Positions 5,132-44,728 are shown, counted from the first letter of the stretch. The stretch is DNA of 64,000 bases from GCF_055900595.2 NZ_CM148325.1, one strand, 5' to 3'. Notes: generated by a model from the letters alone, not told the origin. Translations and numbers: made by a program.

Positions 5132-5178
5132 TCTTATCGGGTCTGTAAGCGGGGGAAAGTCTGGTACGCAATACGTCT

Positions 5179-6576
<1,398 letters not shown>

Positions 6577-6619
6577 TTATTCAGTCGATAGTAACCCGCC
6601 CTCCGGGGATAGCAAGCAT

Positions 6620-6670
6620 TTTTTGCAAAAAGGGGTAGATGCAATCGGTTACGCTCTGTATAATGCCGCG
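6620..6670 (+). promoter_or_regulatory. Putative guaBA promoter region (-10-like TATAAT at 6659-6664)
   Basis: TATAAT hexamer about 44 bp upstream of the conserved guaB start, within the xseA-guaB divergent intergenic region; -35 not confidently assigned. Confidence 0.35.
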
Positions 6671-6707
6671 GCAATATTTATTAACCACTCTGGTCGAGAT
6701 ATTGCCC

Positions 6708-8174
6708 ATGCTACGTATCGCTAAAGAAGCTCTGACGTTTGACGACGTTCTCCTCGTTCCTGCACATTCTACCGTTCTGCCGAATACCGCTGACCTCAGC
6801 ACCCAGCTGACAAAAACTATTCGTCTGAATATCCCTATGCTCTCCGCAGCAATGGATACCGTAACGGAAGCGCGCCTGGCTATCGCCCTGGCTCAGGAAG
6901 GCGGTATCGGCTTTATCCACAAAAACATGTCCATTGAACGCCAGGCTGAAGAAGTTCGCCGCGTGAAAAAACACGAATCTGGCGTGGTAACCGATCCGCA
7001 GACTGTTCTGCCAACCACGACGCTGCGCGAAGTGAAAGAGCTGACCGAGCGTAACGGTTTTGCAGGCTATCCGGTTGTGACCGAAGAAAACGAACTGGTC
7101 GGCATTATCACCGGTCGTGACGTGCGTTTTGTTACCGATCTGAACCAGCCGGTTAGCGTTTACATGACGCCGAAAGAGCGTCTGGTAACCGTGCGTGAAG
7201 GCGAAGCCCGTGAAGTGGTGCTGGCAAAAATGCACGAAAAACGCGTTGAAAAAGCGCTGGTGGTTGATGATGAATTCCACCTGATCGGCATGATCACTGT
7301 GAAGGACTTCCAGAAAGCGGAACGTAAACCGAACGCCTGTAAAGACGAACAAGGCCGTCTGCGTGTAGGTGCAGCGGTTGGCGCAGGTGCGGGTAACGAA
7401 GAGCGTGTTGATGCGCTGGTTGCCGCAGGCGTTGACGTTCTGCTGATCGACTCCTCTCACGGTCACTCTGAAGGCGTTCTGCAGCGTATCCGTGAAACTC
7501 GCGCTAAATATCCTGACCTGCAAATCATCGGCGGCAACGTGGCAACAGCTGCAGGTGCCCGCGCGCTGGCAGAAGCCGGTTGCAGTGCCGTTAAAGTGGG
7601 TATCGGCCCAGGTTCTATTTGTACTACCCGCATTGTTACTGGCGTCGGTGTACCGCAGATCACTGCCGTTGCTGACGCAGTAGAAGCCCTGGAAGGCACC
7701 GGGATTCCGGTTATCGCTGACGGTGGTATTCGTTTCTCTGGCGATATCGCGAAAGCTATCGCTGCTGGTGCAAGCGCGGTGATGGTAGGCTCCATGCTGG
7801 CAGGTACGGAAGAATCCCCGGGTGAAATCGAACTCTACCAGGGCCGTTCTTACAAGTCTTACCGTGGGATGGGCTCTCTGGGCGCGATGTCCAAAGGTTC
7901 TTCTGACCGTTACTTCCAGAGCGACAACGCTGCCGACAAACTGGTGCCGGAAGGTATCGAAGGTCGCGTAGCCTATAAAGGTCGCCTGAAAGAGATCATT
8001 CACCAGCAGATGGGCGGCCTGCGCTCCTGTATGGGCCTGACCGGCTGTGGTACTATCGACGAACTGCGTACTAAAGCGGAGTTTGTACGTATCAGCGGTG
8101 CGGGCATTCAGGAAAGCCACGTTCACGACGTGACCATTACTAAAGAGTCCCCGAACTACCGTCTGGGCTCCTGA
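6708..8174 (+). CDS. guaB: IMP dehydrogenase
   Basis: Conserved N-terminus [25 protein letters not shown] begins at the in-frame ATG at 6708 (ORF track extends to 6639); CBS and IMPDH catalytic regions present ([11 protein letters not shown]). Confidence 0.95.
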
Positions 8175-8181
8175 TTCTCTT

Positions 8182-8202
8182 CGCCCGACTTCATGTCGGG
8201 CG
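8182..8202 (+). other. Stem-loop in the guaB-guaA intergenic region
   Basis: Inverted repeat cgcccgac-ttcat-gtcgggcg followed by an AT-rich run; possible intra-operon attenuator or processing site. Confidence 0.3.
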
Positions 8203-8242
8203 ATTTATATTATCTGTTTCACTTGCCTCGGAATAAGCGTCA

Positions 8243-9820
8243 ATGACGGAAAACATTCATAAGCATCGCATCCTCATTCTGGACTTCGGTTCTCAGTACA
8301 CCCAACTGGTTGCGCGCCGCGTGCGTGAACTGGGTGTTTACTGCGAACTGTGGGCGTGGGATGTGACAGAAGCACAAATTCGTGACTTCAATCCAAGCGG
8401 CATTATTCTTTCCGGCGGCCCGGAAAGCACCACCGAAGAAAACAGCCCGCGTGCGCCGCAGTATGTCTTTGAAGCAGGCGTACCGGTATTCGGCGTTTGC
8501 TATGGTATGCAGACCATGGCAATGCAGTTGGGTGGTCATGTTGAAGCCTCTAACGAACGTGAATTTGGCTATGCGCAGGTTGAAGTCGTAAACGACAGCG
8601 CACTGGTTCGCGGTATCGAAGATGCGCTGACAGCAGACGGTAAACCTCTGCTCGATGTCTGGATGAGCCATGGCGATAAAGTTACCGCTATCCCGTCCGA
8701 CTTCATCACCGTAGCCAGCACCGAAAGCTGCCCGTTCGCCATCATGGCAAATGAAGAAAAACGCTTCTATGGCGTACAGTTCCACCCGGAAGTGACTCAT
8801 ACCCGCCAGGGGATGCGCATGCTGGAGCGTTTTGTGCGTGATATCTGCCAGTGTGAAGCCCTGTGGACGCCAGCGAAAATTATCGACGATGCAGTAGCCC
8901 GTATCCGCGAGCAGGTAGGCGACGATAAAGTGATCCTCGGCCTCTCTGGTGGCGTGGATTCCTCCGTGACTGCAATGCTGCTGCACCGCGCAATCGGCAA
9001 AAACCTGACTTGCGTATTCGTTGACAACGGCCTGCTGCGTCTCAACGAAGCAGAGCAGGTTCTGGATATGTTTGGCGATCACTTTGGTCTGAACATTGTT
9101 CACGTTCCGGCAGAAGATCGCTTCTTGTCAGCGCTGGCTGGTGAAAACGATCCGGAAGCAAAACGTAAAATCATCGGTCGCGTTTTCGTTGAAGTATTCG
9201 ATGAAGAAGCGCTGAAACTGGAAGATGTGAAGTGGCTGGCGCAGGGTACTATCTACCCTGATGTTATCGAATCTGCCGCGTCTGCAACCGGTAAAGCTCA
9301 CGTCATCAAATCTCACCATAACGTGGGCGGCCTGCCGAAAGAGATGAAGATGGGCCTGGTTGAACCGCTGAAAGAGCTGTTCAAAGACGAAGTGCGTAAA
9401 ATTGGTCTGGAGCTGGGCCTGCCGTACGACATGCTGTACCGTCACCCGTTCCCGGGACCAGGCCTTGGCGTTCGTGTGCTGGGCGAAGTGAAGAAAGAGT
9501 ACTGCGACCTGCTGCGCCGTGCTGATGCCATCTTCATTGAAGAACTGCGTAAAGCGGACCTGTACGACAAAGTTAGCCAGGCGTTTACCGTGTTCCTGCC
9601 GGTACGTTCTGTTGGCGTAATGGGCGATGGTCGTAAATACGACTGGGTTGTGTCTCTGCGTGCCGTCGAAACCATCGACTTTATGACCGCACACTGGGCG
9701 CATCTGCCGTACGATTTCCTTGGTCGCGTTTCCAACCGCATTATCAATGAAGTGAACGGTATTTCCCGCGTGGTGTATGACATCAGCGGCAAGCCACCGG
9801 CGACTATTGAGTGGGAATGA
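8243..9820 (+). CDS. guaA: GMP synthase (glutamine-hydrolysing)
   Basis: 525-aa [43 protein letters not shown] ... PPATIEWE; class I glutamine amidotransferase plus ATP-pyrophosphatase regions. Confidence 0.95.
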
Positions 9821-9822
9821 TT
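9809..9822. repeat. attL core (direct repeat GAGTGGGAATGATT overlapping the guaA stop codon)
   Basis: Exact 14-bp copy also at 44813-44826; the left copy supplies the last guaA codons and TGA stop. Confidence 0.55.
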
Positions 9823-9866
9823 CGTTAACGCTTTTCTGCGATTAACACCCATCGAAAATAATACTA

Positions 9867-9895
9867 ACCGCCTTGATTTACAGGCGGTTTTTTTA
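9867..9895 (+). terminator. Rho-independent terminator downstream of guaA (prophage-supplied)
   Basis: Hairpin accgcc-ttgatttac-aggcggt followed by a run of Ts. Confidence 0.6.
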
Positions 9896-9938
9896 TTTTC
9901 AGTCATTAATAACCATCAGTTACTATCTGTTGTTTTTA

Positions 9939-10026
9939 GCGGTAAATTTGACGGTATAAGAAATTTTTAGTCAGTGTTACACTCCATTTTACCGTCAGGT
10001 TTTAGCCAGCGGTGACGGTAAAATTT
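9939..10026. promoter_or_regulatory. Cluster of GACGGTA(A/T)A motifs: putative integrase arm-type binding sites
   Basis: gcggtaaa 9939-9946, gacggtata 9950-9958, inverted tttaccgtc 9988-9996, gacggtaaa 10014-10022, immediately upstream of int; the same motif occurs twice in the right arm (44730-44750). Confidence 0.4.
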
Positions 10027-10030
10027 CACA

Positions 10031-11245
10031 ATGGAGAGTGACCCGATGCTGACCGATACCAAACTGAAAAACCTCAAAGCGCGGGAAAAACTTTATAAAG
10101 TTGCAGACCGTGATGGGCTGTATGTAACCGTATCTCCCAAGGGATTGGTGACGTTTCGCTATGACTATCGAATCAATGGTCGTCGTGAAACGTTAACTAT
10201 TGGTCGCTATGGTGACGGTATTTCTCTGGCGCAGGCGCGCGAAAAATTAGTGGAAGCCAAAAAACGCGTAAATGCAGGAATATCGCCCGCTGGAGAGAAG
10301 CGTGACGGTAAAACAAAGCGAAAAGAAGAAAAGACACTCCACGATTTTACCGTCAGCTACATGAAACACACCCGGCTGGCGGACAGCACAAGGGCGATGA
10401 AGCAAAGCATTATCGACAGAGACATCACGCCAGTATGGGGGCGCAAGCTGCTGTCAGAGATAACCCCCTCTCTCCTACGTGAGTATTGCGACAAGATAAA
10501 AGCGCGTGGTGCGCCAGCGACGGCGATTCAGGTTCGCAATATCGTTAGTGCGGTATTTAAGTTCGCCGCGCTTCACGGCGACTATTACCCCAATCCTGCC
10601 GAAGAGGTTTTACCGGCTTCAATTGCGACATTCGAAGCGCGCGACAGGGCGCTCAAGCCAGAGGAGATAGGCTGGTTTTTCAATCAGCTTGAACAAACGG
10701 GTACATTACCCACCATCAAGCTGGCCATTAAATTGGTTTTATTAACGATGGTACGTAAAAGTGAACTGCTGAACGCTCCGTGGGGTGAGGTTAATTTTAA
10801 TGCCTGCCTTTGGACGATTGACGCCAGCCGGATGAAGGGATCACGGGATCATAATGTTTATCTGTCCCGGCAGGCACAGGACATTCTGATTGCCCTGAAA
10901 ATGTGCGCAGGAAGCAGTGATTGGGTTTTGCCTTCATGCAATCAGTCGTCGCATAAGACCATGTCGGCGGCGACCTTAAACCGGGTCATTAATCTTACGG
11001 TTAAGCAGGCGCAGGAACGGGGGATCAGGCTGGCGTCGTTTTCCGTTCACGATATGCGCCGAACGGCATCGACGTTATTGCATGAGGCGGGGTTTAATTC
11101 CGACTGGATAGAAAAATGCCTCGCGCACGAGGAAAGAAGCGTCAGAGCCGTTTATAACAAAGCGGAATACGCAGAGCAGCGCCGTGATATGTTGCAGCAG
11201 TGGGCGGATATGGTTGATGGGTGGATCAAGCAATACCGCCCGTAA
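10031..11245 (+). CDS. int: Tyrosine recombinase, P4-type phage integrase
   Basis: N-terminal arm-binding region DGLYVTVSPKGLVTFRYDYRINGRRETLTIGRYG and C-terminal catalytic HDMRRT ... AVYNKAEY (HxxR ... Y) typical of P4/CP4-57 integrases; true start may be the Met at about 10046. Confidence 0.9.
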   Translation: MESDPMLTDTKLKNLKAREKLYKVADRDGLYVTVSPKGLVTFRYDYRINGRRETLTIGRYGDGISLAQAREKLVEAKKRVNAGISPAGEKRDGKTKRKEEKTLHDFTVSYMKHTRLADSTRAMKQSIIDRDITPVWGRKLLSEITPSLLREYCDKIKARGAPATAIQVRNIVSAVFKFAALHGDYYPNPAEEVLPASIATFEARDRALKPEEIGWFFNQLEQTGTLPTIKLAIKLVLLTMVRKSELLNAPWGEVNFNACLWTIDASRMKGSRDHNVYLSRQAQDILIALKMCAGSSDWVLPSCNQSSHKTMSAATLNRVINLTVKQAQERGIRLASFSVHDMRRTASTLLHEAGFNSDWIEKCLAHEERSVRAVYNKAEYAEQRRDMLQQWADMVDGWIKQYRP

Positions 11246-11248
11246 GTA

Positions 11249-11503
11249 CTATGCGGGGATCTTGGTACCAGAGCGCTTTGGGACTTTGGCCAGATTTTTC
11301 TGTACCGCGTTATCAATATGGTGATGGTTATTTTCCTGCCGTGCTTTGAGCCAGCGTTCCACTTCCTCTTTGTCCCACGCGACGGCGCGCTTCGTTAGCG
11401 CAAAACGTTTGGGAAACAGGCCTTTTTGCTCCAACGCATAAATCGTACTTTCAGAGAGTGGCACCATCTGTAAAAGCACGTTTTTTCTAATGGCAATTTT
11501 CAT
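11249..11503 (-). CDS. alpA: AlpA/Vis-family excisionase-type transcriptional regulator
   Basis: Motif LSESTIYALEQKGLFPKRFALTKRAVAWDKEEVERWL matches the AlpA family; adjacent to int. Confidence 0.7.
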   Translation of the reverse strand: MKIAIRKNVLLQMVPLSESTIYALEQKGLFPKRFALTKRAVAWDKEEVERWLKARQENNHHHIDNAVQKNLAKVPKRSGTKIPA

Positions 11504-12314
11504 TGTTTATTCCTTTAATCCAAAGGCACTCAGTTCTGATAACAGATCCTTTTTTACCAGCAGCGGCAGATTGCTTTGTCTCTTTACGCCAGCCGGTTAG
11601 CAAATCGTTATACATTTCGGTGTCGTAGCCGCTGATAACCACGCTTCCTTGTAACCGGGTGACGGTCTCCAGTAAGCGCAGGTGGGCACCATCGTCCATT
11701 TCGTGGCGATAATATTTGTTAGTCAGATTACGGGTGCTATGAACATACGGCGGATCGACAAAATGCAGCGTGTCGGCGGCGTCATGATCCAGAATACACT
11801 GGATGGCATCGCGGTTTTCCACCAGAACCCCTTCAAAACGCTGACCAACGGCGGCCAGATTATCGGGCATACGGCTCCAGATGTGTTGGGCCGTTCCACT
11901 GGCGCGTTTAGTGTCCAGCCGAAAGCCGGTAGTGCCTTTAGTTGCCCCGGCAGAACCGAAGCCCATCGTGGCGCGAATCACTAAACGCCTTGCCTGTTCA
12001 ACAGAATTTTTCCCATAGCGATAGGCCGAAATAAACTCGGTGCGGGAATAGGGTGTCAGGCTGCAGGCTTCAACCAGTCTTTCGCGCAGTTGTGGGGTAC
12101 GAAGAACGGCGAACAGGTTAACGACGTCGCCATCCAGATCGTTGTAAACCTCGGCGTAGCTACGTGGTTTTCTGAGCAGTACGCTGGCTGCACCGCCGAA
12201 GGGTTCCACATAGCATCTGTGGGCCGGAAAGTGGCTAATGATCCACGGAGCTAGTCGCCACTTGCCGCCGTGGTAGCGGATTGCAGGGTGCTTAATCATC
12301 CAGTTTTTCTCCAC
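11487..12314 (-). CDS. DNA adenine (N6) methyltransferase, Dam family (copy 1)
   Basis: SAM-binding motif YVEPFGGAASVLL and catalytic DPPY (FVDPPYVHSTRN). Confidence 0.8.
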   Translation of the reverse strand: MEKNWMIKHPAIRYHGGKWRLAPWIISHFPAHRCYVEPFGGAASVLLRKPRSYAEVYNDLDGDVVNLFAVLRTPQLRERLVEACSLTPYSRTEFISAYRYGKNSVEQARRLVIRATMGFGSAGATKGTTGFRLDTKRASGTAQHIWSRMPDNLAAVGQRFEGVLVENRDAIQCILDHDAADTLHFVDPPYVHSTRNLTNKYYRHEMDDGAHLRLLETVTRLQGSVVISGYDTEMYNDLLTGWRKETKQSAAAGKKGSVIRTECLWIKGINNENCH

Positions 12315-12891
12315 GCCGTTCTACGTTCAGGTGTCGCCACTGCACCGCAATCCGTTTCATCACCGCATTCCCCTCTGGGATCACCTCCTGCGGCTCCTTC
12401 ATCAACATGACCCGCCCCCGAATAACGATCAGCGCTTGTTCCAGCAGGCCATAGTCCAGATAACAGAGATCGGGAATATCCAGTTGCCACACATAGCCAT
12501 TCCATGCTGAAAGTAGCACTTGCGCGGCGGCGCGTCCGCCGCTGGTTTCTGTGAGCGCGATTTTGGCAAGTGTATTGACGGCTGCGCCATATTCCTCTGG
12601 CGTGACGCGGAGTTTCTGCTGGCTGTTATCTTCTTTTGCCAGCGTTAATAATCCAATCGGGTGTAATACGCCCAGCTCTTCCATCTTTTCTTTCAATGTT
12701 GCAGCTGTATTCCATCCAATTCTGAATTTGCGCTGCAGGCGGCTGATACTGATAATGCCTTCCGCCTCGGCCAGTTCGACCGCTTTGGGATAGAGTTCAT
12801 TGAGCCGATATTCGTAATCAGCGAAGGGCGCACCGCTATTCTCTGGCAGGCCAGAGAGTGTTTGTGAATTATTTCCAGAGGATTTCATCAT
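12292..12891 (-). CDS. Hypothetical protein with FtsK-gamma-like winged helix
   Basis: Segment IISISRLQRKFRIGWNTAATLKEKMEELGVL resembles the FtsK gamma-domain consensus (S.S.lQR..rIGynRAarl.e.mE..G); remainder unrecognised. Confidence 0.45.
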   Translation of the reverse strand: MMKSSGNNSQTLSGLPENSGAPFADYEYRLNELYPKAVELAEAEGIISISRLQRKFRIGWNTAATLKEKMEELGVLHPIGLLTLAKEDNSQQKLRVTPEEYGAAVNTLAKIALTETSGGRAAAQVLLSAWNGYVWQLDIPDLCYLDYGLLEQALIVIRGRVMLMKEPQEVIPEGNAVMKRIAVQWRHLNVERRGEKLDD

Positions 12892-12901
12892 AATTTCCTT
12901 T

Positions 12902-15559
12902 TTAACGTTGAAAAACCCAACACTTCACCGTCGCCGGGCGGCGCGGTGCGGCTGGGTAACGGCGGTTAAATTCAGCGTTGATGCCGCTGTTAACCGTTCT
13001 GACTTCAATAAACTTGTGGGTACGGCTGGTTTTTAGCACTCGCTTCAAATCGCTGATCGGCGGGATCTGCTGGCGGCGCTCGGTAGCCAGTTGAATAAAG
13101 TGGTTAAGGTTAACGGCGATAAGCTGTTCATCGCGCGAGTGGTTGAGCTGTGGTTCGTCGTCGCCATCGAGGAAGTCGAAAATATCCCAGAACTCCTGCA
13201 CCAGAGGATGGTCGGCGCTGATGGCCTGTTGGCGCTCCAGACTGAGGCGGATAAACATTTCTCTGGTCGCCTGTAGCTGCTCTTCCGTGACCGGAATAAC
13301 CAGCGCCAGCGCGTCGAGCAGCGCCATAAGCTGGGCGTGGTTTTTAATGATGCGGATATGGCGAATATCTGGGTGGGAGTGAAGTTGCTGCTCGTATAGC
13401 GGGATCTGACGGTTAACGCACTCCAGCACGGCCTGTTCCGCCAGCGCTGCCTTCAGCATAAAGCCGGAAAGCTGTTCTACCGGCAGGCGTTCGAGCTGCT
13501 CGGCAGCGACCTTGGTCTGAGTATTCTGGCCGCTGCGGTCGGTGTACAGGTGAATAATACGTTCCAGCACCGGGTTAGAGGCGCTAACATCGGCGTTTTG
13601 CGCAATCACAATCGCGCCCCGGAACGGCGGTTCATAGGTCTCGTTGCCGCTGTTACGCAGACCGCGAGAACGCACCGACCGCCCGTTATAGGCGGTTTTC
13701 AGCTCTTCCCAATCAAAGCCACGCTGCTTTGCCCCCTCCTGATTACGGTCACCCTCGATCAGCACCACCGGCATATTTGCTACCTGCGCAAAGTTGCGCG
13801 CGCGGGCGGCCAGCGTTGATTTAGACGGATCGAAACCTTCATAGTCGCGTCGGCCCAACAGTTTCCAGAGGAACTCTATCAGCGTGGTTTTACCGCTGCC
13901 GGGTTCGCCAACGATTTCCAGAAATGGAAAGCTCTTGTGCTTGTCGCGGATCTGTTCGGCAAACATCGTCCCAAACCAGTACGCCAGCGCCACAAACCCC
14001 TTTGCGCCAAACGCCTGCCAGAGTAGCTGGGGCCACTGGCTGTCCATCTGTTTTAAATTGTCGTTCAGCGTCAGGCTGACCGACTGGTTCAGGCTTTTAA
14101 GGCTAAGTTTGCCCATGTCGAAGAAGTCTTCTTCGTTGAGTGTGTACAGCCGACCATCGCGAACGGCCAGATCGTTGAACACGTAAGCGCGGTATTCTTT
14201 GCTGTAGCCGATAAAATCAGTGGTCTGGACAGTTTTGATTTTGGGAAGCTGCTTGAGCAGCAACTTATCTAACTGCTGACTGGTGCCGGTGAAGATGCCG
14301 CCCTGCGCGATATGCAGCAGGCGCTTTTTGAATTCTGAGCCGCTGGAAAGTTGGGAGCCGGTGAAGGTGTTTTTTATCGGTGGAGTGTCGTCGGGGAAGT
14401 TAATGCGAAAGTAATACCAGCTTTCGTCGGTAATGGTGTTGGCCTGATAGTAGAGGGCGGTCGGGTAGCAGTTGGCTATCTCAACAACGGCGGCTGACTC
14501 CTGTAGCGCTTTATGTTTGGCTTCTTCTTCGTCCAGCTCCTCTTTGCCGTTATACATCACGTTATCAAAGGCACGCATATAACGGTCAATATCCAGCTTG
14601 AACCAGTACAGGCGGCTGTCGAACTCGAAGTGAAACTCTTTGCGTTCGGTACGCTCATGCATCAGTAATGCTTTGGCATTCGGATTGGGAGCGATCAACA
14701 GTGAACCGTAGTAACGATATTTTTTAATCAGATCCGGGTTTAGCCGATCGCGCTGGTGCAAATCGTTCCAGTCCAGCTTGGTGCGGGAATAGGGCGTTTG
14801 TGCGGCGGTGGAAAGCCAGCCGTCGTCGCGGCTGCGTTTTACCCAGCGGCGGGTGTAATTCATGCCCGCTTTGTCGTTATCCAGCGCCCAGACCAGTAAA
14901 GGACGCTTTTTATCCACGAACAGCGCGGCCAGTTGGCTTAACGCCTGCGCCGGATAGTTGTTACAGGTCATCAGGGAAACGGCGGCAATGCCGTGGTGGT
15001 GCAGGGCGATAGCGTCAAAAATGCCCTCAACCAGCCAGATCTCCTGCTGTTCTTCCAGCTTAAGCGTTGGCAATTGCCACCATAGCCCGCTGTAAGCGCC
15101 GTGAAAATTGGCTTTGCGATCGCCGAAACGCTGTGGGCGGTCAACGATCCGCTCCCACCACACGCCGTCAGCCAGCGGGAAACGCACAGTGGCCGAGCCG
15201 AGATCGCGCCGTGCGTCATAGTAGTTCTCTTGAGCGTAACAGTTACGGAGCAGCGAAAGGTCAAAGCCGCGCATCTCGCGCAGGTAGGCATCGGCGGCGG
15301 CCTGTGGGTTTTCCGGGGTTGGGGGATATCTGTCTGACCAGCTTTCAAATAGATCCGGGTACACCTCTTTGATATGGATTTCGGCATTGCATTTATTCAG
15401 GCGACCGCAGCGCAGTACCCACGGGCTGATGGCGTAGGTGTACAGCTCTTTTTTCTGGCAGTCCGGGCAGACGCCCTGCCGCAGCCAGTCGCCCTGTTCT
15501 TTAAAGGAAAAATCGGCTAGCAGTCGCCGCGTAATTTCCTGATGAAGTTGTGGTTGCAT
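12902..15559 (-). CDS. Replicative primase-helicase (P4 alpha / HP1 Rep-like)
   Basis: N-terminal zinc-binding motif CPDCQKK ... CGRLNKC, TOPRIM-like EGIFDAIALHHHG and LDNDKAG (DxD), and Walker A GEPGSGKTTL. Confidence 0.75.
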   Translation of the reverse strand: MQPQLHQEITRRLLADFSFKEQGDWLRQGVCPDCQKKELYTYAISPWVLRCGRLNKCNAEIHIKEVYPDLFESWSDRYPPTPENPQAAADAYLREMRGFDLSLLRNCYAQENYYDARRDLGSATVRFPLADGVWWERIVDRPQRFGDRKANFHGAYSGLWWQLPTLKLEEQQEIWLVEGIFDAIALHHHGIAAVSLMTCNNYPAQALSQLAALFVDKKRPLLVWALDNDKAGMNYTRRWVKRSRDDGWLSTAAQTPYSRTKLDWNDLHQRDRLNPDLIKKYRYYGSLLIAPNPNAKALLMHERTERKEFHFEFDSRLYWFKLDIDRYMRAFDNVMYNGKEELDEEEAKHKALQESAAVVEIANCYPTALYYQANTITDESWYYFRINFPDDTPPIKNTFTGSQLSSGSEFKKRLLHIAQGGIFTGTSQQLDKLLLKQLPKIKTVQTTDFIGYSKEYRAYVFNDLAVRDGRLYTLNEEDFFDMGKLSLKSLNQSVSLTLNDNLKQMDSQWPQLLWQAFGAKGFVALAYWFGTMFAEQIRDKHKSFPFLEIVGEPGSGKTTLIEFLWKLLGRRDYEGFDPSKSTLAARARNFAQVANMPVVLIEGDRNQEGAKQRGFDWEELKTAYNGRSVRSRGLRNSGNETYEPPFRGAIVIAQNADVSASNPVLERIIHLYTDRSGQNTQTKVAAEQLERLPVEQLSGFMLKAALAEQAVLECVNRQIPLYEQQLHSHPDIRHIRIIKNHAQLMALLDALALVIPVTEEQLQATREMFIRLSLERQQAISADHPLVQEFWDIFDFLDGDDEPQLNHSRDEQLIAVNLNHFIQLATERRQQIPPISDLKRVLKTSRTHKFIEVRTVNSGINAEFNRRYPAAPRRPATVKCWVFQR

Positions 15560-15647
15560 TGCCAGTACCTTTATTCAGGTAATACTTACCCGTCGCATAG
15601 ACACGTTGTTTATGCGTTGTGGTTGTGAGTCTTTTATTTACTGAGCG

Positions 15648-15896
15648 TTACGCGATTTTCTGCTTTTGCAGAAATTGCCCGCGTGTGGATAGCGGTATGT
15701 GTATCTTAGGATTCGGGCAACCGCTGGGTACTACCGTTCCCATCACGGTCTCCATCGCGATAAATGAAAACGAACAGTTAACGTTCTTGCACTGGTAATA
15801 GAGCTTACGTACCAGCGGTGACATATATTCGCTGCTGCGAATTATCGCCTTACCGTCGCAGTGTGGGCATTTCATCATGTCCGATCTCCTTACCAC
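15648..15896 (-). CDS. ogr: Ogr/Delta-family zinc-finger late transcription activator
   Basis: CPHCDGKA ... YYQCKNVNCSFSF matches the Ogr/Delta C-x2-C ... C-x4-C zinc finger. Confidence 0.8.
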   Translation of the reverse strand: MVRRSDMMKCPHCDGKAIIRSSEYMSPLVRKLYYQCKNVNCSFSFIAMETVMGTVVPSGCPNPKIHIPLSTRGQFLQKQKIA

Positions 15897-16201
15897 TTTT
15901 AACTAACTGAAACACTAACGCTTTTCGTTAACGGACTGACGAAATAGTGTGATGCCGTTCAAAAAAATGATTCTTGCCATGCTGGACATCGAACGGTTCT
16001 GCTCCAGCGCTAATGCTTACAGTTCCGCGATTTCAGCGGGGAGCAGACGCATTGCCACCGGTTTGTTCGACATCACCCCGCGGGGTGCTCGTGAGCGTAA
16101 GACGTTCTCATTTGTTTTCATGGTGGTATATTGTGGTTATTAACATTACACAATCTATAATTCCCTCAATTGAGTGAATTGTCAATGGTAATTATATCCA
16201 A
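15897..16201. promoter_or_regulatory. Divergent switch region between ogr and the HTH repressor-like gene
   Basis: 305-bp non-coding region with AT-rich tract acaatctataattccctcaattgagtgaattgt (inverted ACAAT ... ATTGT ends) just upstream of the HTH gene. Confidence 0.4.
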
Positions 16202-16540
16202 ATGAAAGAATTTGGCATCCGTTTGAAGGAAGAACGTATCCGACTTGGCCTTGATCAAGACGGCTTTGGACAACTTGGGGGCGTGAAGAAAAACGCACAA
16301 AGTAACTATGAGAATGGACTGCGCAAGCCGGACAGTGACTATCTTGCTGGCATAGCGGCAGCGGGAGTTGATGTTCTGTATGTTCTAACAGGCAACCGCA
16401 CGCCTGTGGCTACGTTGTCCAGTAAAGAGAGTGTGTTGGTGGAGAACTATCGTTCTGCTACGCCAGAACACCAGTCCACCCTTGACACGGTTAGCGCTGC
16501 GCTTGCGCAACCGGGAGTAGGGAAAGCAGCTAAGGGATAA
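16202..16540 (+). CDS. HTH XRE/Cro-C1-type regulator, probable prophage immunity repressor
   Basis: N-terminal HTH FGIRLKEERIRLGLDQDGFGQLGGVKKNAQSNYENGLRKP; divergent from the early/late regulators; GC content like the phage backbone. Confidence 0.65.
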   Translation: MKEFGIRLKEERIRLGLDQDGFGQLGGVKKNAQSNYENGLRKPDSDYLAGIAAAGVDVLYVLTGNRTPVATLSSKESVLVENYRSATPEHQSTLDTVSAALAQPGVGKAAKG

Positions 16541-16580
16541 CGAGTAGAATGAATTTGGTTATTGTCTGTATGGAGGCAAA

Positions 16581-17153
16581 ATGAAGTTGAATAATCTGGT
16601 TGCTCTTTACAGGAACATGACAGAGCAAAAATTGGATAGGGTTAAATTCCCATACAGACACAATAATTTACATTTTGATGTATTTTTCTTTATTGATGGA
16701 AAACCGTTTGAGCTTCTTTTCGGAGCATTAGGCGCTAATCTTTGCTTTCGTCTAAAAGTCGAGAAGGGATTCGTCATAAATCCTAATCTGGGAAGTGAGA
16801 CTTATAAAGAATTATGCAAGGCGCTAGGTTTGAAATATGACCCTGCCAATCCATTTAGAACAAGTAAGTTTTTTGAAGATTTTGATGGGAAAATCCCTAC
16901 ATCGGTTACTGTTAAGAATAAGGCAAAATATACTGATATTGCTGTGCATGTCAGGGATGTTGAAGAAGCAGACAGAATATATTTCTGTGGATGGAAAAAC
17001 AACAATGAAGAAAAGAGTCATGTTACTGAAGATAATTTAAAGAAAACGAAAGAGTTTTTAGGGTATCAGGCTTTTCTTGTTTGTAAGGAAAAGAATATTA
17101 GCAGTAGATGGACTGATTTAGAAAATAAAGCAAAAGATTTTTATTTACCATAG
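16581..17153 (+). CDS. Hypothetical protein (cassette gene 1), no recognisable motif
   Basis: 190-aa ORF with RBS ggagg upstream, AT-rich codon usage, 40 bp downstream of the HTH gene. Confidence 0.5.
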   Translation: MKLNNLVALYRNMTEQKLDRVKFPYRHNNLHFDVFFFIDGKPFELLFGALGANLCFRLKVEKGFVINPNLGSETYKELCKALGLKYDPANPFRTSKFFEDFDGKIPTSVTVKNKAKYTDIAVHVRDVEEADRIYFCGWKNNNEEKSHVTEDNLKKTKEFLGYQAFLVCKEKNISSRWTDLENKAKDFYLP

Positions 17154-17167
17154 GATTGTGAGGTTAT

Positions 17168-18316
17168 ATGTCTGATATTTCATTAGGGTGCGTGGTTGTT
17201 CATAGGTTGATAAAAGAGCAACATAAAGATTTCGATCACTCAAAACCATATAGTCGCCGTGATACGGTTCTTGACCGAAATAATGAAATCGTAATTAAAC
17301 TAGTGTCCAGTATAGCCGCATTGTATGGTAAAAAATCTAATAGCTCGCATTATGGTATATTTAATTTAGATGAAACACGCAGGGGGCCTTTTCCAGCGGA
17401 ATTTGATAAATATCGGAATGATACATCCAAGAAGTTAGACGATGAATTGTTTATAGGATTATCAAAAAATGTTATGCATCAGTTATATATTGAGGCAAAG
17501 GATCGACCTGCTGCATCAGGAGGATTACTTCTTTTTGCTGATTATATCAGTAAATCCGTGCGTTACTTTCTTATTGCAATGATTAAGCAAAAGGAAGGTA
17601 TAGTTATTAGTGATAAATTAGAGCCAAAGGAGTTAGAGCATCTTGATCTGGCAAAACTAAACCAGGCGGCACGAATAAACTATGATTTGTATGATAAATA
17701 TATTTCCGCTGATGAGAATGAAAGACAGGATGTTAATTATTTAAGTTTTGTTAGTCCCAGTTCTAACCAGACAACTTCAGGGTATTTCATTACTGCCTTA
17801 GGTTGTGATAAAGGTAATACATCAACTAAAGCTACGAGTAATTTAATTAATGAATCTTTTAACTTCTTCAGAAATCATCAAGAATTAAAGGATAATGCCC
17901 GTAAATTTAAAAATGAAATTATTGAGTATTTATTCGATTGTTCTGAAAATAACATTTCAGCTAAGCTCTCTGTTGTTAGTGAGATGGCGGCGAAGCATAT
18001 GGTTAATTTAGAAGATGACATTAAAGATAAATTGTCAGAAGAATTATATGCTCATTTGAATAGTGAAAGTATTCGTGTGCCTGTGGAATTTAGGGTAAGC
18101 AAATCAGTAGTTAAGAAAAACAGAAATATTAAATATACAAGTGATAATGTTAATTTTGAGTTTAAATCTAGTTTACTAGGCAATACTCTTGATAATGAGA
18201 TATGCTATAATAAGAAAACTGGACATTTAACTTTTACTCGGATTACTCCTGAGAAAAAAAGTGAAATAGCTCAATTGCTTGATGAGTTAATAAAAGAAAG
18301 AAATAGCGAAAAATAA
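17168..18316 (+). CDS. NdpA/YejK-like nucleoid-associated-protein family member (cassette gene 2)
   Basis: N-terminal VVVHRLIKEQH and SGGLLLFADYISKSVRYFLIAMIK align by eye with YejK IALHQLIKRDE and [24 protein letters not shown] (sequence recalled from memory); further colinear similarity towards the C-terminus. Confidence 0.5.
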   Translation: MSDISLGCVVVHRLIKEQHKDFDHSKPYSRRDTVLDRNNEIVIKLVSSIAALYGKKSNSSHYGIFNLDETRRGPFPAEFDKYRNDTSKKLDDELFIGLSKNVMHQLYIEAKDRPAASGGLLLFADYISKSVRYFLIAMIKQKEGIVISDKLEPKELEHLDLAKLNQAARINYDLYDKYISADENERQDVNYLSFVSPSSNQTTSGYFITALGCDKGNTSTKATSNLINESFNFFRNHQELKDNARKFKNEIIEYLFDCSENNISAKLSVVSEMAAKHMVNLEDDIKDKLSEELYAHLNSESIRVPVEFRVSKSVVKKNRNIKYTSDNVNFEFKSSLLGNTLDNEICYNKKTGHLTFTRITPEKKSEIAQLLDELIKERNSEK

Positions 18317-18318
18317 GG

Positions 18319-18957
18319 TTGCTTAATATGTCATGTTTTGAAACGGTTGTTGAGCTTTTCAGATATGTAGGGCGTCCTAAATTTGATGCTATTAATAATC
18401 GTTTTTCAGCAACTATTTCTTATGATGCTCATATATATGAACTCTTAGTTTCTTTGCAACCTCATACAGCGTGGGGAGAAATTGAAGAGATTGTCATTGA
18501 TGATGTGGATATAGATGTTGATGATAGCCTTCCCGCTAAAGGAACATCAATAACACTGACAATCTCTATATCAACTGGAGCTAGTGAGTCATTTTTTATC
18601 GATATTAAAGATCTAATTCAAAAGTCTCCGATGTTAAATAGAGGTATTTTAAGAAAGTCTTTTTACTTGGTTGAGGAAGATTTTTATTTTAATGAAGGAA
18701 TGGTTGAGGGATTAGCAAAAATACCAGAACTATCTGTTTTAAAGAATCTTTGTGATTTTATTTTATGTCTATCAAAAGTTGCACACTACAGCAATAGTAA
18801 AAGTGATGATGTATGCCATAAGTTAGTTTTCTTGAAAAATACTAATGCTAAGTCATTACCTTTAATTATTGAAACTAATGTTGATTATTCACTTCTTTTA
18901 ACAGGTATTAAGGATTTAAAAATCATCGAATCTTTTTCTGATGAAAAAAAGCTATAA
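18319..18957 (+). CDS. Hypothetical protein (cassette gene 3)
   Basis: 212-aa ORF starting 2 bp after gene 2; acidic stretch IDDVDIDVDD; no recognisable motif. Confidence 0.5.
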   Translation: MLNMSCFETVVELFRYVGRPKFDAINNRFSATISYDAHIYELLVSLQPHTAWGEIEEIVIDDVDIDVDDSLPAKGTSITLTISISTGASESFFIDIKDLIQKSPMLNRGILRKSFYLVEEDFYFNEGMVEGLAKIPELSVLKNLCDFILCLSKVAHYSNSKSDDVCHKLVFLKNTNAKSLPLIIETNVDYSLLLTGIKDLKIIESFSDEKKL

Positions 18958-19001
18958 CGGATGATAATTATTTTGAGCGAAAAGGGATTTTCATTAATAC
19001 G

Positions 19002-19583
19002 GTGGTCGATTTTCTTGAATCAATCGATGTAAAGAAACAGTTTCATTTTTTATTCTGTGAGTGGGATGAATTTCTAAAACTATACCATAATAACCTCGGT
19101 GTATATCTTAGTGGTTTTTCATTTCATAAAGTAAGAAAGGAAGTGGCAGAGGCAGAAGCTAATTTAGCTGAGCGTTTTTCAAAAATAATGTCAGACATGA
19201 TAGCTAAGCTTTTAGGTATTCCTGTTTCTTTGGTTGCTACTTTTGGCATGATAAAATTAAATACCCTGCCGGAAATGTTAGTGGTTTTTTTAGGTGTATT
19301 GCTCACGTCGATAATTATGTTTTTTATTGTAAGAAGTCAATACACACAGTTTAGGATGATTTGTGATGCTAAAGATATTATATTTTCCCCATTAGTGAAA
19401 AAATCTGTAGGTTATACAGAAGATTTGAAAAAATTAGTATGCAATGCAAAGGATAATTTAGACAAAAATCAGGTCATGTTAAATCGTTACCTTCTTTTCT
19501 TTCAATGCTTATGCTGGATTCCGACAGCCTTAGGTGGTGGAATGATCTTAATGGCTATTATGGTTCATTTAGGATTACTATAA
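19002..19583 (+). CDS. Predicted membrane protein with two hydrophobic helices (cassette gene 4), putative effector
   Basis: Hydrophobic segments LLGIPVSLVATFGMI ... LVVFLGVLLTSIIMFFIV and LLFFQCLCWIPTALGGGMILMAIMVHLGL; 3' end overlaps the convergent gpD stop by 6 nt. Confidence 0.5.
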   Translation: MVDFLESIDVKKQFHFLFCEWDEFLKLYHNNLGVYLSGFSFHKVRKEVAEAEANLAERFSKIMSDMIAKLLGIPVSLVATFGMIKLNTLPEMLVVFLGVLLTSIIMFFIVRSQYTQFRMICDAKDIIFSPLVKKSVGYTEDLKKLVCNAKDNLDKNQVMLNRYLLFFQCLCWIPTALGGGMILMAIMVHLGLL

Positions 19584-26096: not shown

Positions 26097-26204
26097 CATG
26101 AGGCGAGCCTCCATCAGGTCAATAAATGACGATGGTGGCACAGAGCGAAAAGGGCGGTGACGGCTTCCACTTGTAACCACTGGCACTACAAGCAGAAGCG
26201 GTTT

Positions 26205-26963
26205 TTAATTCAGGATAATCAGTTCTGATGTGGTGCTGGCTGGCTTTCCACCTACGGTATAGCGAATCCCTACCGTTGAGAATGTCAGGCCGTGGAAGAT
26301 ATCGCGCATTTCCGGGATGTCGTTAACCGAGATAATCATCCGGCCCTGCATGGTGCGCGCCAGCTCTGCCATACGCTGGTACTGCTCAAGGCCAAATGGT
26401 ACGCCGTAGCCTTCGGTTTTCCAGTATGGTGGGTCGCAGTAGAACAGGGTATGCGGGCGGTCATAGCGGCGAATACAGTCGGCCCAGTCCAGATTTTCAA
26501 TGCAGACGCGCGCCAGCCGCAGATGGGCGGCGGATAAATCCTCTTCCATACGCAGCAGGTTCAGGCGCGGCGGTGAGGTGGTGGCGGTACCGAACGTGCG
26601 ACTTTCCACTTTGCCGCCGAATGCCAGCTTTTGCAGATAGTAGAAGCGCGCCGCGCGCTGGATATCGGTCAGCGTTTCTTCCGGGGTGATCTGGAGCCAG
26701 CGGTACATTTCGCGGCTGACCAGCGACCATTTAAACTGGCGGACAAACTCTTCTAAATGGTGCTGAAGTACGCGGTAGAGGTTGGTAACGTCACCGTTGA
26801 TATCGTTCAGCACCTCGGCCTGTGCGGGCTGTTTCATAAAGAACAACGCTGCCGCCCCGCAGAACGGTTCAACGTAGCAGCGGTGTTTGGGAAACAGTGG
26901 CAGAATGTGTTTTGCCAGCCTGCGCTTACCGCCGATCCACGGAATAACGGGTAACGTATTCAA
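26205..26963 (-). CDS. DNA adenine (N6) methyltransferase, Dam family (copy 2)
   Basis: YVEPFCGAAALFF and FYCDPPYW motifs; sits at the position of the P2 Z/fun accessory locus between tfa/G and FI. Confidence 0.8.
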   Translation of the reverse strand: MNTLPVIPWIGGKRRLAKHILPLFPKHRCYVEPFCGAAALFFMKQPAQAEVLNDINGDVTNLYRVLQHHLEEFVRQFKWSLVSREMYRWLQITPEETLTDIQRAARFYYLQKLAFGGKVESRTFGTATTSPPRLNLLRMEEDLSAAHLRLARVCIENLDWADCIRRYDRPHTLFYCDPPYWKTEGYGVPFGLEQYQRMAELARTMQGRMIISVNDIPEMRDIFHGLTFSTVGIRYTVGGKPASTTSELIILN

Positions 26964-27427
26964 ATTGTCAATTTTCCAGACCGACTGCTGACCAACGCAT
27001 ACAGCAGATTAGGAGACCAGCGCCAACTATCGCGCAGGTGCAGAAATTCGGCGCAGAACTCGCTGCAAAACAGGCGTTCCTGTTTACCCTGACTGAGTAA
27101 CACAAAACCCATGGCGCCCAGCCAGTCGTAACCTTTATCGTCGTGCTGACGAAAAAAGGTTTCCAGTGCCAGCGGATCGGCGTTGATCGGGAGTAAATCC
27201 CATTTCTCAATCGGCAGCGGCATTCGTTTGCTGCGCACGCCTTTATCCCGTACCGATGATGAGTAACAGATAAACAGGCCATCCGGCAGGCGTTCGACCA
27301 GTTCGCAGTGAGAGTAAGGGCCGCGCGTGACCTGTCGCGTCAACCAGTCGGAGAGCCGGGCAAGGCTGAAAAAGCGTTCAGCCCGGCCACGGTAGAACGC
27401 CATGTAAACCTGACTCATGGTTGCCAT
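26960..27427 (-). CDS. Hypothetical protein, possibly permuted-papain/NlpC-P60-like (His-Cys pairs); function unknown
   Basis: 155-aa ORF overlapping the Dam start by 4 nt; motifs SHCELVE and FCSEFCAEFLH; family assignment is only a guess. Confidence 0.35.
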   Translation of the reverse strand: MATMSQVYMAFYRGRAERFFSLARLSDWLTRQVTRGPYSHCELVERLPDGLFICYSSSVRDKGVRSKRMPLPIEKWDLLPINADPLALETFFRQHDDKGYDWLGAMGFVLLSQGKQERLFCSEFCAEFLHLRDSWRWSPNLLYALVSSRSGKLTI

Positions 27428-32241: not shown

Positions 32242-32312
32242 GCCGGAATCATTGGGATTCGCGGGCGAAGAGGGAAGGGCTAAGGCTTGTAGGATAATGG
32301 GCTACAAGTAAA

Positions 32313-32347: not shown

Positions 32348-32683
32348 TTAACCGTGCGCAGCCTTCATCAGTGTATCGTTAATCCACTGGTTAACGCTTT
32401 TACCGGAGACTTCTGCCGCAACGTTAATGGCAGAGTGAATTTCAGGTGGAATACGCAGGCTGATTTTTCCGCTGGCCGGACGCAACGGCTCCCGGCCCCG
32501 TTCCTCGCAGTAAGCCAGATAGTCGTCTACCGCCTCTTCAAACGCTTTACGCAGATCGGCAACATTATCGGCATGAAAGCCAATGACATCCCGAATGCCT
32601 GCAACGTGACCAACAATGCATTGATCTTCATCGCTGTATTCAATTTTTGCGGCATAGCCTCTATATGTCATGGTATTCATCAT
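32348..32683 (-). CDS. hicB: HicB-family antitoxin
   Basis: N-terminal HicB-like region YRGYAAKIEYSDEDQCIVGHVAGIRDVIGFHADNVADLRKAFEEAVDDYL plus C-terminal ribbon-helix-helix ISLRIPPEIHSAINVAAEVSGKSVNQWI; overlaps hicA by 4 nt. Confidence 0.7.
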   Translation of the reverse strand: MMNTMTYRGYAAKIEYSDEDQCIVGHVAGIRDVIGFHADNVADLRKAFEEAVDDYLAYCEERGREPLRPASGKISLRIPPEIHSAINVAAEVSGKSVNQWINDTLMKAAHG

Positions 32684-35924: not shown

Positions 35925-36038
35925 GGTGTTTCCCGCGCGGCGTCAGGTGATGCGGGGATGGTGGCACAGGGGCGGGAAGTGAAGGGAAGGCTTCCGCTTG
36001 TAACTGAGGACAGTACAAGCGGAAGCGATTGGCGAGGG

Positions 36039-37050: not shown

Positions 37051-37239
37051 ATGGCGAAGAATAGCAGTCCTGCCAGCCGATACGGTATCAAGGTCGTAAA
37101 AAGAGACAGTATGAGCGGGCAGTTTGTACCCGTCGAAATGAAGCTGGACGGCCCGGAAGGTGAGCGTGTGATTAAAAAGTCGGCAGAGCGTATTTATGCC
37201 AGACACAACAAAGTCATTAAGGCGCTGGCTAACCGATGA
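37051..37239 (+). CDS. Putative antitoxin partner of the Doc-family toxin
   Basis: 62-aa ORF whose stop overlaps the Doc start by 4 nt. Confidence 0.4.
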   Translation: MAKNSSPASRYGIKVVKRDSMSGQFVPVEMKLDGPEGERVIKKSAERIYARHNKVIKALANR

Positions 37240-41059: not shown

Positions 41060-41214
41060 AACGTTCAGTCCCGGCGTTGGCTAAATAAGCGAATGGTCGG
41101 GTAGTCCTCCGCTATCAGGCAACGGGCTTCGCTTGTAATCATCCGGGTTACAAGCGGCATTGCTACGCGCAGACAGCGGCTTGTTTACGCTGACGGCAGA
41201 AACGAGAGGACGTT

Positions 41215-44580: not shown

Positions 44581-44728
44581 CCGAAGTCCCCACGGACTTT
44601 GGTATATATAGATAGGTTAAAAAGTAGCCGTTATGTTTGCCAGCTATTTACTTCCCATTCTTCCACTGGCCAGCATGTTAATATGCCCGGTAATGATAAC
44701 TAGTTGCCATTGGGTTACTTTCTTCTGT

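Follow-up and report, generated by a model that had tools for sequence, protein, structure and literature searches.

A P2-like prophage at guaA in Escherichia coli with a phiCTX/RSY1-type early region and a candidate replication origin

Positions 10031–15896 of a 64,000-nucleotide stretch of NZ_CM148325.1 (GCF_055900595.2; the whole stretch is called the window) hold the early genes of a prophage that has its virion and lysis genes in P2 order and lacks the replication and integration genes of P2. The question raised by this locus is where such an early region comes from and how it would replicate the phage. A preliminary description, made from the sequence alone, regarded it as a mosaic module, with a P4/HP1-like integrase, an AlpA regulator and a primase-helicase in place of the rolling-circle initiator A of P2. 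Comparison with P2, HP1 and P4 upheld the non-P2 character of the early region. The stretch 9809–44826 is, very probably, a single temperate P2-like (Peduoviridae) prophage with an early region of the phiCTX/RSA1/RSY1/Smp131 type, inserted at the 3' end of guaA, and the interval can with equally good confidence be regarded as the integration, replication and late-activation module of this 35-kb element. The analysis established gene content, order and boundaries, homologies, a predicted fold, the absence of P2 A, B, C, cox and int and of P4 alpha, and the conservation of cis-acting elements.

Boundaries and unity of the prophage

The flanking chromosome is that of E. coli, with xseA, guaB and guaA on the left and yfgI, yfgH, yfgF, ppx and ppk on the right. 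The prophage is bordered by two exact copies of a 14-bp repeat, GAGTGGGAATGATT, at 9809–9822 (attL, + strand) and 44813–44826 (attR, + strand). The attL core spans the final three codons and the stop codon of guaA, so that the gene remains intact. No third core was present in the window when up to two mismatches were allowed, and an att site of the tRNA type was rejected, as the window contains no tRNA genes. A 600-bp sequence assembled from the two flanks with a single core between them was contiguous at 99.8 % identity in element-free E. coli genomes, this empty site being covered to at least 80 % in 4567 of 5426 complete genomes. Because the empty site is precisely reconstituted, 9823–44812 (34,990 bp) represents one precise insertion. 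The positions of the cores place attP between int and cos, in agreement with the cos-proximal att site proposed earlier. The GC content was 53 % for the prophage overall, 56 % for the late genes, 32 % for one cargo cassette and 51 % for the flanks.

One cos-like site, AGGCGTGGCGGGGTCACAACC, was found at 44091–44111 on the − strand, and it was the only copy in the window with up to three mismatches allowed. By manual comparison it agreed with phiCTX cosL at 17 of 21 positions and with P2 cos at 14 of 19, and the surrounding region was linked by BLAST to the cos flanks of phiCTX and RSY1. Packaging would start from this single P2-type cos. Four exact copies of the dyad CTTGTA-N11-TACAAG, and no more, were present in the window, where 0.11 would be expected by chance; all are intergenic and precede a late operon: upstream of FI (26170–26192), of V (32286–32308), of X and the lysis genes (35997–36019), and in the divergent region between O and P (41132–41154). 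The spacing of the corresponding half-sites is TGT-N13-ACA, one base more than the N12 of P2; the P2-type dyad TGT-N12-ACA was rejected, being neither enriched nor present at the late operons. The sole Ogr-like gene of the element, whose product would activate these promoters, lies in the early interval.

The early part (~96 % identity) and the late part (~97 %) were found together in the same three E. coli genomes, GMF054, L725 and CEC15, and in no others, which makes the element rare (3 of the 5426 complete genomes). In GMF054 (NZ_CM183924.1), the right end of the prophage is followed by a 3.8-kb island (8905–12712 of the compared stretch) encoding two DUF262 proteins, with a further exact att core before yfgI, which suggests tandem use of the guaA site in that genome.

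Lineage of the early region

The P2-order set of virion, lysis and packaging genes, together with a P2-type cos and an Ogr-type activator with its dyads, places the element in the Peduoviridae; the order of the virion, lysis and cos modules and the Ogr-type late control are shared with P2, 186 and HP1. The classical early region of these phages, comprising an A/Rep nickase with B, a P2-type int and a C/CI–cox/apl switch, is lacking. In tblastn searches of the window at E<0.1, no match was obtained with P2 A, B, C, cox, int or orf80–91, nor with P4 alpha, sid, psu, epsilon or cnr, and P4 delta was matched only through the Ogr fold. The only P2 or P4 early matches were those expected of the int, AlpA and Ogr families. 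A cryptic P2 A-type relaxase was thus not detected, and the view that a primase-helicase takes the place of P2 A stands. P2 and HP1, in contrast, possess an A/Rep nickase with rolling-circle replication and P2-type int, C and cox. P2 further differs in having attP between ogr and int. HP1 resembles the window element in having attP between cos and int, whereas its rep encodes a P2 A-like nickase, and the window int, AlpA and primase had no similarity to the first 12 kb of HP1 (including int and rep); the HP1-like assignment of the integrase and replicon was therefore abandoned.

A P4-like satellite, with an alpha-type primase-helicase, sid/psu/delta/epsilon, its own cos and att, and no virion, is likewise not what was found. 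The element resembles P4 in joining a Zn-ribbon/TOPRIM primase, an SF3-like helicase and a putative C-terminal iteron-binding domain in one protein, and in its Arm-type integrase and AlpA-family Vis protein, but it encodes a full virion of its own and lacks sid, psu, epsilon and cnr. An Arm-type (DUF4102) integrase with an AlpA/Vis protein is common to many unrelated elements and is not diagnostic of a P4-like satellite. In BLASTP, the primase-helicase aligned with P4 alpha only in the Walker-A box and a 74-residue TOPRIM stretch. Pfam searches with the window protein recovered only Toprim_2, plus DUF5906 at E 0.19, whereas P4 alpha has Zn_Ribbon_Prim, Toprim_3, D5_N, DUF5906 and Pox_D5, none of them significant in the window protein, and represents a separate family.

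The primase-helicase gene (12902–15559, − strand; 885 aa) instead matched PHROG 1139 over its full length (1262 bits; Pfam Toprim_2 E 1e-11). Its family is a large one: 419 clusters at 50 % identity had E<1e-30. Full-length homologues were present in 40 of the 42 matching phage records, and the records examined all possessed a P2-type virion module, most being Peduoviridae. Amino acid identity was 58 % with Ralstonia phage RSY1, 53 % with ‘Bacillus’ phage ZY1 and Escherichia phage ev239, 52 % with Halomonas phage 4908, 48 % with phiCTX orf37, 45 % with Smp131 and 34 % with phi3. The family is also used by small elements, since a full-length primase with 48 % identity is encoded in an island of ~13 kb, satellite-like in its gene content, between hpt and gcd in E. 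coli ST131 strain 2019_APHA (NZ_CP051609.1; ~4379–16883 of the compared stretch). This island encodes a tyrosine recombinase, an Icd-like protein, the 889-aa primase, a second integrase, an Ogr/Delta-like protein, a ‘P2 family major capsid protein’ and MazEF, and is possibly a capsid-encoding satellite that uses the same replication enzyme.

Within the PHROG 1139 family, the window element agrees with phiCTX, RSA1, RSY1 and Smp131 in having a primase-helicase of ~885–900 aa with an Ogr-like gene upstream, and in the map order D, regulatory region, early operon, int, attP, repeat region and cos. The order D, regulatory region, early operon with primase, int, attP and cos was also found in phiCTX, Smp131 and Halomonas phage 4908. 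An AAAGGTAAY array between attP and cos, which is a criterion of this analysis and not part of a published definition, is present as well. The closest correspondence is with RSY1 (Peduoviridae, Arsyunavirus; a relative of RSA1), whose early operon comprises an Ogr-like gene, the primase gene and an AlpA-like ‘excisionase and transcriptional regulator’, followed by a convergent Arm-type int and attP. In both elements the Ogr-like gene lies inside the early operon, the order is primase, AlpA-like gene, convergent int, attP, AAAGGTAAY array, cos and Q, and the late genes follow P2 order, at 39–70 % identity. RSY1 differs in its host, in its attB (tRNA-Ser instead of guaA), in an Int that is just 26 % identical, in a larger number of small early genes and in type VI secretion system-related cargo at cosL, whilst the Dam methylase, the FtsK-gamma/DUF7673 protein and the Arc-like first gene are features of the window element. 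The Pseudomonas phage phiCTX (Citexvirus) shares the orf37 primase, R3 repeats (AAATTACCTTTC) with the same iteron motif and spacing, and the cos sequence noted above, but it has an unrelated Int, encoded in the same direction as the early operon, its attB is tRNA-Ser and it carries the ctx toxin cargo at cosL. The E. coli Peduoviridae member ESSI2_ev239 (Evevirus), with its 53 %-identical primase, shows that this type of replication gene is already catalogued in coliphages; it differs in retaining P2-type int, C and cox-like genes, in late genes of 24–58 % identity and in lacking an AAAGGTAAY array.

An Ogr gene in the early region and a DnaG-type primase have been described for these P2-like phages (PMC5694545, PMC6389784, PMC3931495). 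RSY1 and RSA1 are P2-like phages with the same early arrangement (PMC5694545), RsoM1USA has Ogr/Delta and a DNA primase in its early region, integrases differing between otherwise similar phages (PMC6389784), and Smp131 has been described in the same manner (PMC3931495). P2-like late genes attached to non-P2 regulatory regions are also on record (PMC3448106). Judged by sequence comparison, the early region is an arrangement long known from phiCTX, RSA1/RSY1 and Smp131, not a fresh hybrid of P2 and P4. The divergence of the primase (48–58 % identity) lies within the range of the structural proteins, so that nothing marks the early region as a recent graft. Since no record in the phage collection exceeded ~73 % DNA identity to the element, it would probably define a new genus-level group.

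The integration genes have a different history. The tyrosine integrase (10046–11245, + strand, 399 aa; the open reading frame (ORF) call starts at 10031 and the PGAP-equivalent start is 10046) contains the Pfam domains Arm-DNA-bind_3, Phage_int_M and Phage_integrase. It was 60–62 % identical to integrases of Uetakevirus, i.e. epsilon15-like podoviruses (e.g. SPN1S, epsilon15 and TL-2011b), 30 % identical to P4 Int over the full length and 26 % identical to RSY1 Int. The earlier label of a P4-type integrase is thus accurate as regards the three-domain architecture, with about twice the similarity to the epsilon15 type as to P4 or RSY1 Int. In a megablast search of the early region against phages, the only match was 188 bp in epsilon15 int. 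The epsilon15 attP region (26651–27207) holds the identical 14-bp core GAGTGGGAATGATT, and we take epsilon15 to integrate at guaA. Motif searches revealed arm-type sites, GACGGTA(A/T)A, in the P' arm (9941–10022; sites at 9950, 9988 on the − strand, and 10014) and two more within int (10304 and 10346); in the P arm, GACGGTAAA occurs twice at 44730–44750 (+ strand; 44730 and 44742), as supported by comparison with epsilon15. The window arm motif corresponds to the annotated integrase-binding sites of epsilon15, GTGACGGTAT, two of which also lie within epsilon15 int, and the same GACGGTAT motif occurs in both. The homologous Int, the identical core and the same arms define an int/attP cassette common to this myovirus prophage and the podoviruses, which have unrelated virion and replication genes and share only this cassette. 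By these sequence criteria the genuine module swap is that of int/attP, of the epsilon15 type, and it offers a clean case of such a cassette moving between myoviruses and epsilon15-like podoviruses. The integrase would recombine the 14-bp core via the GACGGTAWA arm sites.

Adjacent to int, and last in the early operon, lies a gene for a small helix–turn–helix (HTH) protein of the AlpA/Vis family (11249–11503, − strand, 84 aa; Pfam Phage_AlpA E 9e-13; PHROG 66 and 2790, ‘excisionase and transcriptional regulator’), which accounts for the AlpA regulator reported previously. It was 39 % identical to P4 ORF88 and 38 % identical to RSY1 ORF48, which has the same map position. From its family and position it is probably an excisionase and would act as the directionality factor of excision.

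Two other origins of the interval were weighed against descent within the phiCTX/RSY1 group. In a recent mosaic, a P2-type phage would have lost A and B and gained a replication–integration module from a P4-like satellite or an HP1-like replicon. Such an event is suggested by the P4-type architecture of the integrase and its 30 % identity to P4 Int, by the 39 % identity between the AlpA protein and P4 ORF88, by an order of Zn ribbon, TOPRIM and P-loop as in P4 alpha, by the 48 %-identical primase in the ST131 island and by the position of attP beside cos in HP1. It is nevertheless very unlikely: in BLAST the primase resembles P4 alpha only in the Walker A and TOPRIM motifs, its Pfam domains are others, HP1 rep encodes an A-type nickase and no early protein of the window matches HP1, and the identity of the integrase to those of the epsilon15 type is double that to P4 Int. 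Moreover, phiCTX, RSY1, Smp131, the Halomonas phage and others have this primase in the same gene order, and the primase divergence of 48–58 % matches that of the structural proteins (45–70 %). The proposed exchange between Peduovirinae and satellite or HP1-like replicons accordingly fails for the primase region, as the group arrangement was already known, whilst the modularity behind it is borne out by the epsilon15-type int/attP and by the primase of the ST131 island. Less probable still, to the point of being hardly credible, are two tandem elements, in which int, AlpA, primase, Ogr, repressor and cargo would make up a small satellite or island beside a P2-like prophage without early genes. 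Reuse of guaA as an integration hotspot, as seen in the additional DUF262 island with its further core in GMF054, and the existence of satellite-like islands carrying the PHROG 1139 primase family speak for it. However, there is neither an internal att core (≤2 mismatches) nor a second cos, the late region would be left without an integrase, repressor, replication gene or Ogr of its own, the Ogr dyads are confined to the late region and the Ogr-like gene to the early part, and the free phages RSY1 and phiCTX hold exactly the same combined content. With two att cores only, an exact empty site, one cos, and four Ogr-type dyads served by the sole Ogr-like gene in the interval, the two halves are tied together and a separate tandem satellite is excluded.

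The primase-helicase and a proposed replication origin

Domain annotation confirmed the earlier reading of the 885-aa protein as a zinc-finger/TOPRIM/Walker-A primase-helicase. It comprises a DnaG-type Zn ribbon, a TOPRIM RNA-polymerase domain, a beta-rich middle part, an AAA+/SF3-like helicase of the Cch/SaPI-Rep type with the Walker A sequence GEPGSGKT, and C-terminal helical and winged-helix-like parts. Residues invariant across 81 diverse family members included C31, C34, C51 and C57 of the Zn ribbon, E178 and D227 of TOPRIM, G551, G556 and K557 of Walker A, E602 of Walker B, Q654 and N655 of motif C, and R667 and R736, the former being taken as the arginine finger. As sequence-profile searches of the PDB with the family gave only weak matches to DnaG TOPRIM, structure prediction was needed, and an AlphaFold (AF2) model was built from the 81 homologues (pLDDT 94.6, pTM 0.81). 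In Foldseek searches against the PDB, the N-terminal ~290 residues of the model matched the DnaG zinc-binding and RNA-polymerase domains (2au3, 5w33) and T7 gp4 primase. Residues ~300–885 matched SCCmec Cch (5dgk, E 2e-16) and SaPIbov1 Rep (8tch, 1.5e-12), and further the folds of the NrS-1 C-terminal region, the SaPI5 primase-helicase, PriRep1, poxvirus D5/E5 and SV40 LTag, the PDB entries matched by the helicase part being 5dgk, 8tch, 7ola, 7pds, 8apm and 1n25. A fold search of BFVD returned generic TOPRIM/DUF927 primase-helicases, with P4 alpha absent among the top 50.

The predicted fold and the catalytic motifs are thus those of self-loading AAA+/SF3-like initiator helicases of the Cch/SaPI Rep/D5 class. 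SCCmec Cch and SaPIbov1 Rep have just 10–12 % sequence identity to the window protein and differ from it in lacking a fused DnaG-type primase, as SaPIs and SCCmec encode the primase separately or as a Prim-Pol. By analogy, the window protein would be a self-loading initiator-helicase with its own primase, working like P4 alpha or the SaPI Pri/Rep pair. In the model, its last ~85 residues form a helix-helix-hairpin unit that appears to resemble a winged helix.

A candidate for the corresponding origin is an iteron array of ~10 AAAGGTAAY/RTTACCTTT sites at 44296–44584 (~290 bp, AT-rich with 31 % GC), between cos and the P-arm Int sites. They fall into two sets of opposite orientation, separated by a spacer of 55 bp with 20 % GC. 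Nine GGTAAY hexamers occur in 44300–44575 and 10 within 400 bp, compared with a background of 0.6 per 400 bp. Site by site, the array can be aligned with RSY1 1–330 and with the ‘R3 repeat’ region of phiCTX, while the spacers diverge; the start-to-start spacing is 76/22/67 in the window and 66/22/75 in phiCTX. Smp131 and Halomonas phage 4908 have equivalent clusters at the corresponding place, between attP and cos, and no GGTAAY array was found in P2 or P4. The record of Bacillus phage ZY1 starts and ends on coding sequences without the attP–cos segment and is uninformative for iterons.

The presence of the array followed similarity in the primase C-terminal domain. Over the last 85 residues, identity to the window protein was 45–59 % for array-bearing and 22–39 % for array-less genomes, whereas for residues 1–800 the ranges overlapped (50–58 and 34–55 %, respectively). 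The C-terminal identity of Smp131, whose primase is annotated with a frameshift, was not used. The Pseudomonas phage phi3 has a different array of ~10 copies of CYGGAACA directly downstream of its primase gene (7328–7770 of the compared stretch), apparently another set of iterons used with this enzyme family. From the conservation of the AAAGGTAAY array and by analogy with known systems, we infer that the array is the origin and that replication would be of the theta type. That the array and the PHROG 1139 C-terminal domain form the origin/initiator pair of the whole phiCTX/RSA1/RSY1/Smp131 branch of the Peduoviridae has, in our estimation, about an even chance of being correct. In the literature searched, no paper was found that defines the origin of phiCTX/RSY1-type phages, and no description of such a pair for this branch.

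In the mechanism proposed, the 885-aa protein would, after derepression, bind the AAAGGTAAY iterons beside attP and cos through its C-terminal domain, melt the 20 %-GC spacer and self-load as a Cch/SaPI-Rep-like AAA+ hexamer. Priming would use its own DnaG-type TOPRIM domain, followed by a hand-over to host Pol III. Initiation of this theta type, like that of P4 alpha or SaPI Pri-Rep, would replace the rolling circle started by the P2 A nickase.

Several observations weigh against these proposals. The correlation between array and C-terminal identity is drawn from a small sample of three positive and six negative genomes. No recognizable AAAGGTAAY array was found in ev239 or the ST131 island despite their ~50 %-identical primases, and the HTH repressor family, too, is common to phiCTX and RSY1 but not to ev239. 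The array could serve packaging, IHF/terminase architecture or another early protein. The steps of the mechanism are drawn from sequence, predicted fold and analogy, the repressor, the Arc-like protein and AlpA owe their putative roles to family membership and map position, and the nonsense codon and the 1-bp homopolymer deletion described below could be sequencing errors.

If the array were an accessory site for packaging, IHF/terminase intasome bending or a regulator, the true origin would lie elsewhere, for example in or near the primase gene. The place of the array between attP and cos, with IHF sites annotated inside it in phiCTX, is compatible with such a role, as are the repeat array directly following the phi3 primase gene and the lack of the motif in ev239 and the ST131 island. 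The origins of SaPIs, similarly, adjoin rep. Yet P2, with a terminase that is 61 % identical, has no such array, and the integrases of the array-bearing phages belong to different families (epsilon15-type here, unrelated and without a tblastn match in phiCTX, 26 % identical in RSY1). Two inverted iteron sets flanking a 20 %-GC spacer have the classic anatomy of an origin, and the presence of the array tracks the primase C-terminal domain. An accessory role is a possible explanation, but a rather unlikely one, and an origin function of the array is preferred.

Regulatory genes, late genes and implications

The early operon has the order Arc-like, Ogr-like, primase-helicase, DUF7673, Dam and AlpA. 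The Ogr/Delta-like zinc-finger protein (15648–15878, − strand, 76 aa; ORF call to 15896; PHROG 603, NCBIfam PRK09678) is encoded immediately upstream of the primase. It was 42 % identical to P2 Ogr and 47 % identical to RSY1 ORF40, has orf34 as its phiCTX homologue and was 100 % identical to a protein named ‘Ogr/Delta-like zinc finger protein’ by PGAP; on the evidence of PHROG, NCBIfam and the identity to P2 Ogr, an AlpA label for ORF 15648–15896 was rejected. Co-transcribed with the primase, it would activate the four CTTGTA-N11-TACAAG late promoters. Two further genes of the interval had not been recognized before. One encodes a Dam-type N6-adenine DNA methyltransferase with a DPPY motif (11487–12314, − strand, 275 aa; PHROG 56, TIGR00571, PADLOC MTase_II), the other a 199-aa protein that combines an FtsK-gamma-like winged helix at its N-terminus with a DUF7673 domain at its C-terminus (12292–12891, − strand; PHROG 6694 and 13700, with an NCBIfam FtsK C-terminal match). 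The GMF054 homologue of the latter has 125 aa and was named ‘DUF7673’ by PGAP. The early Dam gene and the FtsK-gamma-like extension (11487–12891) form a ~1.4-kb replacement that is absent from GMF054, L725 and CEC15. The prophage contains a second Dam-type methylase gene at 26205–26963, in the P2 Z/fun position between G and FI.

The first early gene encodes an Arc-like ribbon-helix-helix protein of 68 aa when intact (15915–16121, − strand), and the intact CEC15 copy was assigned to PHROG 3431, ‘Arc-like repressor’. In the window it contains a nonsense codon, TAA, at 16017–16019 (GAA in relatives), the sole difference from GMF054 in 320 bp; the gene is intact in GMF054, L725 and CEC15. Family and position suggest a Cro/Cox analogue. 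As sequenced, the window copy is a pseudogene and the lytic switch is probably impaired; the prophage is structurally complete, but it may be locked in lysogeny.

Divergently from the early operon, a 112-aa Cro/CI-type HTH protein without an S24 peptidase domain is encoded at 16202–16540 (+ strand; PHROG 8, 4 and 2328). It matched part of RSY1 ORF38 at 41 % identity and, at 49 %, a stretch of phiCTX genomic sequence at ~26227, just past the leftward orf28–31 block. In RSY1 and phiCTX the homologues occupy the same region, between D and the rightward early operon. Its family and position make it the candidate immunity repressor, which would hold the divergent early operon off. A consensus scan of the switch region (16105–16218) yielded sigma-70-like promoters: a leftward one (16185–16157), putatively assigned to the early operon from the gene arrangement, and promoter-like sites near the start of the repressor gene. 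When the prophage was searched with Rfam, among others for immunity RNAs like CI/C4 of P4, nothing reached the gathering thresholds.

The low-GC cargo cassette lies between the repressor gene and D (16581–19583, + strand; 32 % GC) and encodes a DUF6037 protein, a YejK/NdpA-like nucleoid-associated protein and a 418-aa membrane protein (PHROG 5023; 18319–19583), the last split into ORFs of 212 and 193 aa by a 1-bp deletion in an A-run near 18943. The YejK/NdpA-like protein matched NCBIfam ‘nucleoid-associated anti-phage protein’ weakly (81 bits against a cutoff of 330), PADLOC reported nothing but methylases on the cargo genes, and the cassette is a candidate for anti-phage cargo. L725 and CEC15 carry a different version of the cargo without DUF6037.

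The late region from D to Q (19578–43976), as defined by tblastn against P2, phiCTX and RSY1, has all virion and lysis genes intact. It has the order Q P | O N M L X holins K lysB/C R S V W J I H G FI FII E T U D. The order is that of P2, as claimed previously; the further claim of an exact match is too strong, as cargo interrupts it at four junctions (L/X, S/V, G/FI and D/repressor gene), and lysA is missing. The structural proteins were 31–70 % identical to those of P2, phiCTX and RSY1, mostly 45–65 %, and about equally distant from all three. Every structural coding sequence of GMF054 was recovered at full length without stops, in agreement with the PGAP annotation of this 96 %-identical prophage, and the genes in common with GMF054 were full length except for the Arc-like and 418-aa cargo genes. 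The best megablast match of the late region to phages was 73 % over the sheath gene of Ralstonia phages. Among the cargo, a HicB-like antitoxin gene (32348–32683) was found between S and V, in the P2 orf30 position, and a Doc-like toxin gene with a 62-aa upstream partner (37051–37613) between L and X.

A primase-helicase in place of P2 A is thus the hallmark of a large and old branch of P2-like phages rather than of a P2 × P4 chimera. If the origin/initiator pairing is true, these phages would start theta replication with a DnaG-type primase fused to a Cch/SaPI-Rep-like self-loading helicase, and iteron specificity would be swappable via the C-terminal domain, as suggested by the other or unknown iterons of phi3, ev239 and the ST131 island. 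The comparisons thereby give this phage group a concrete candidate origin with its initiator, both open to experimental test.

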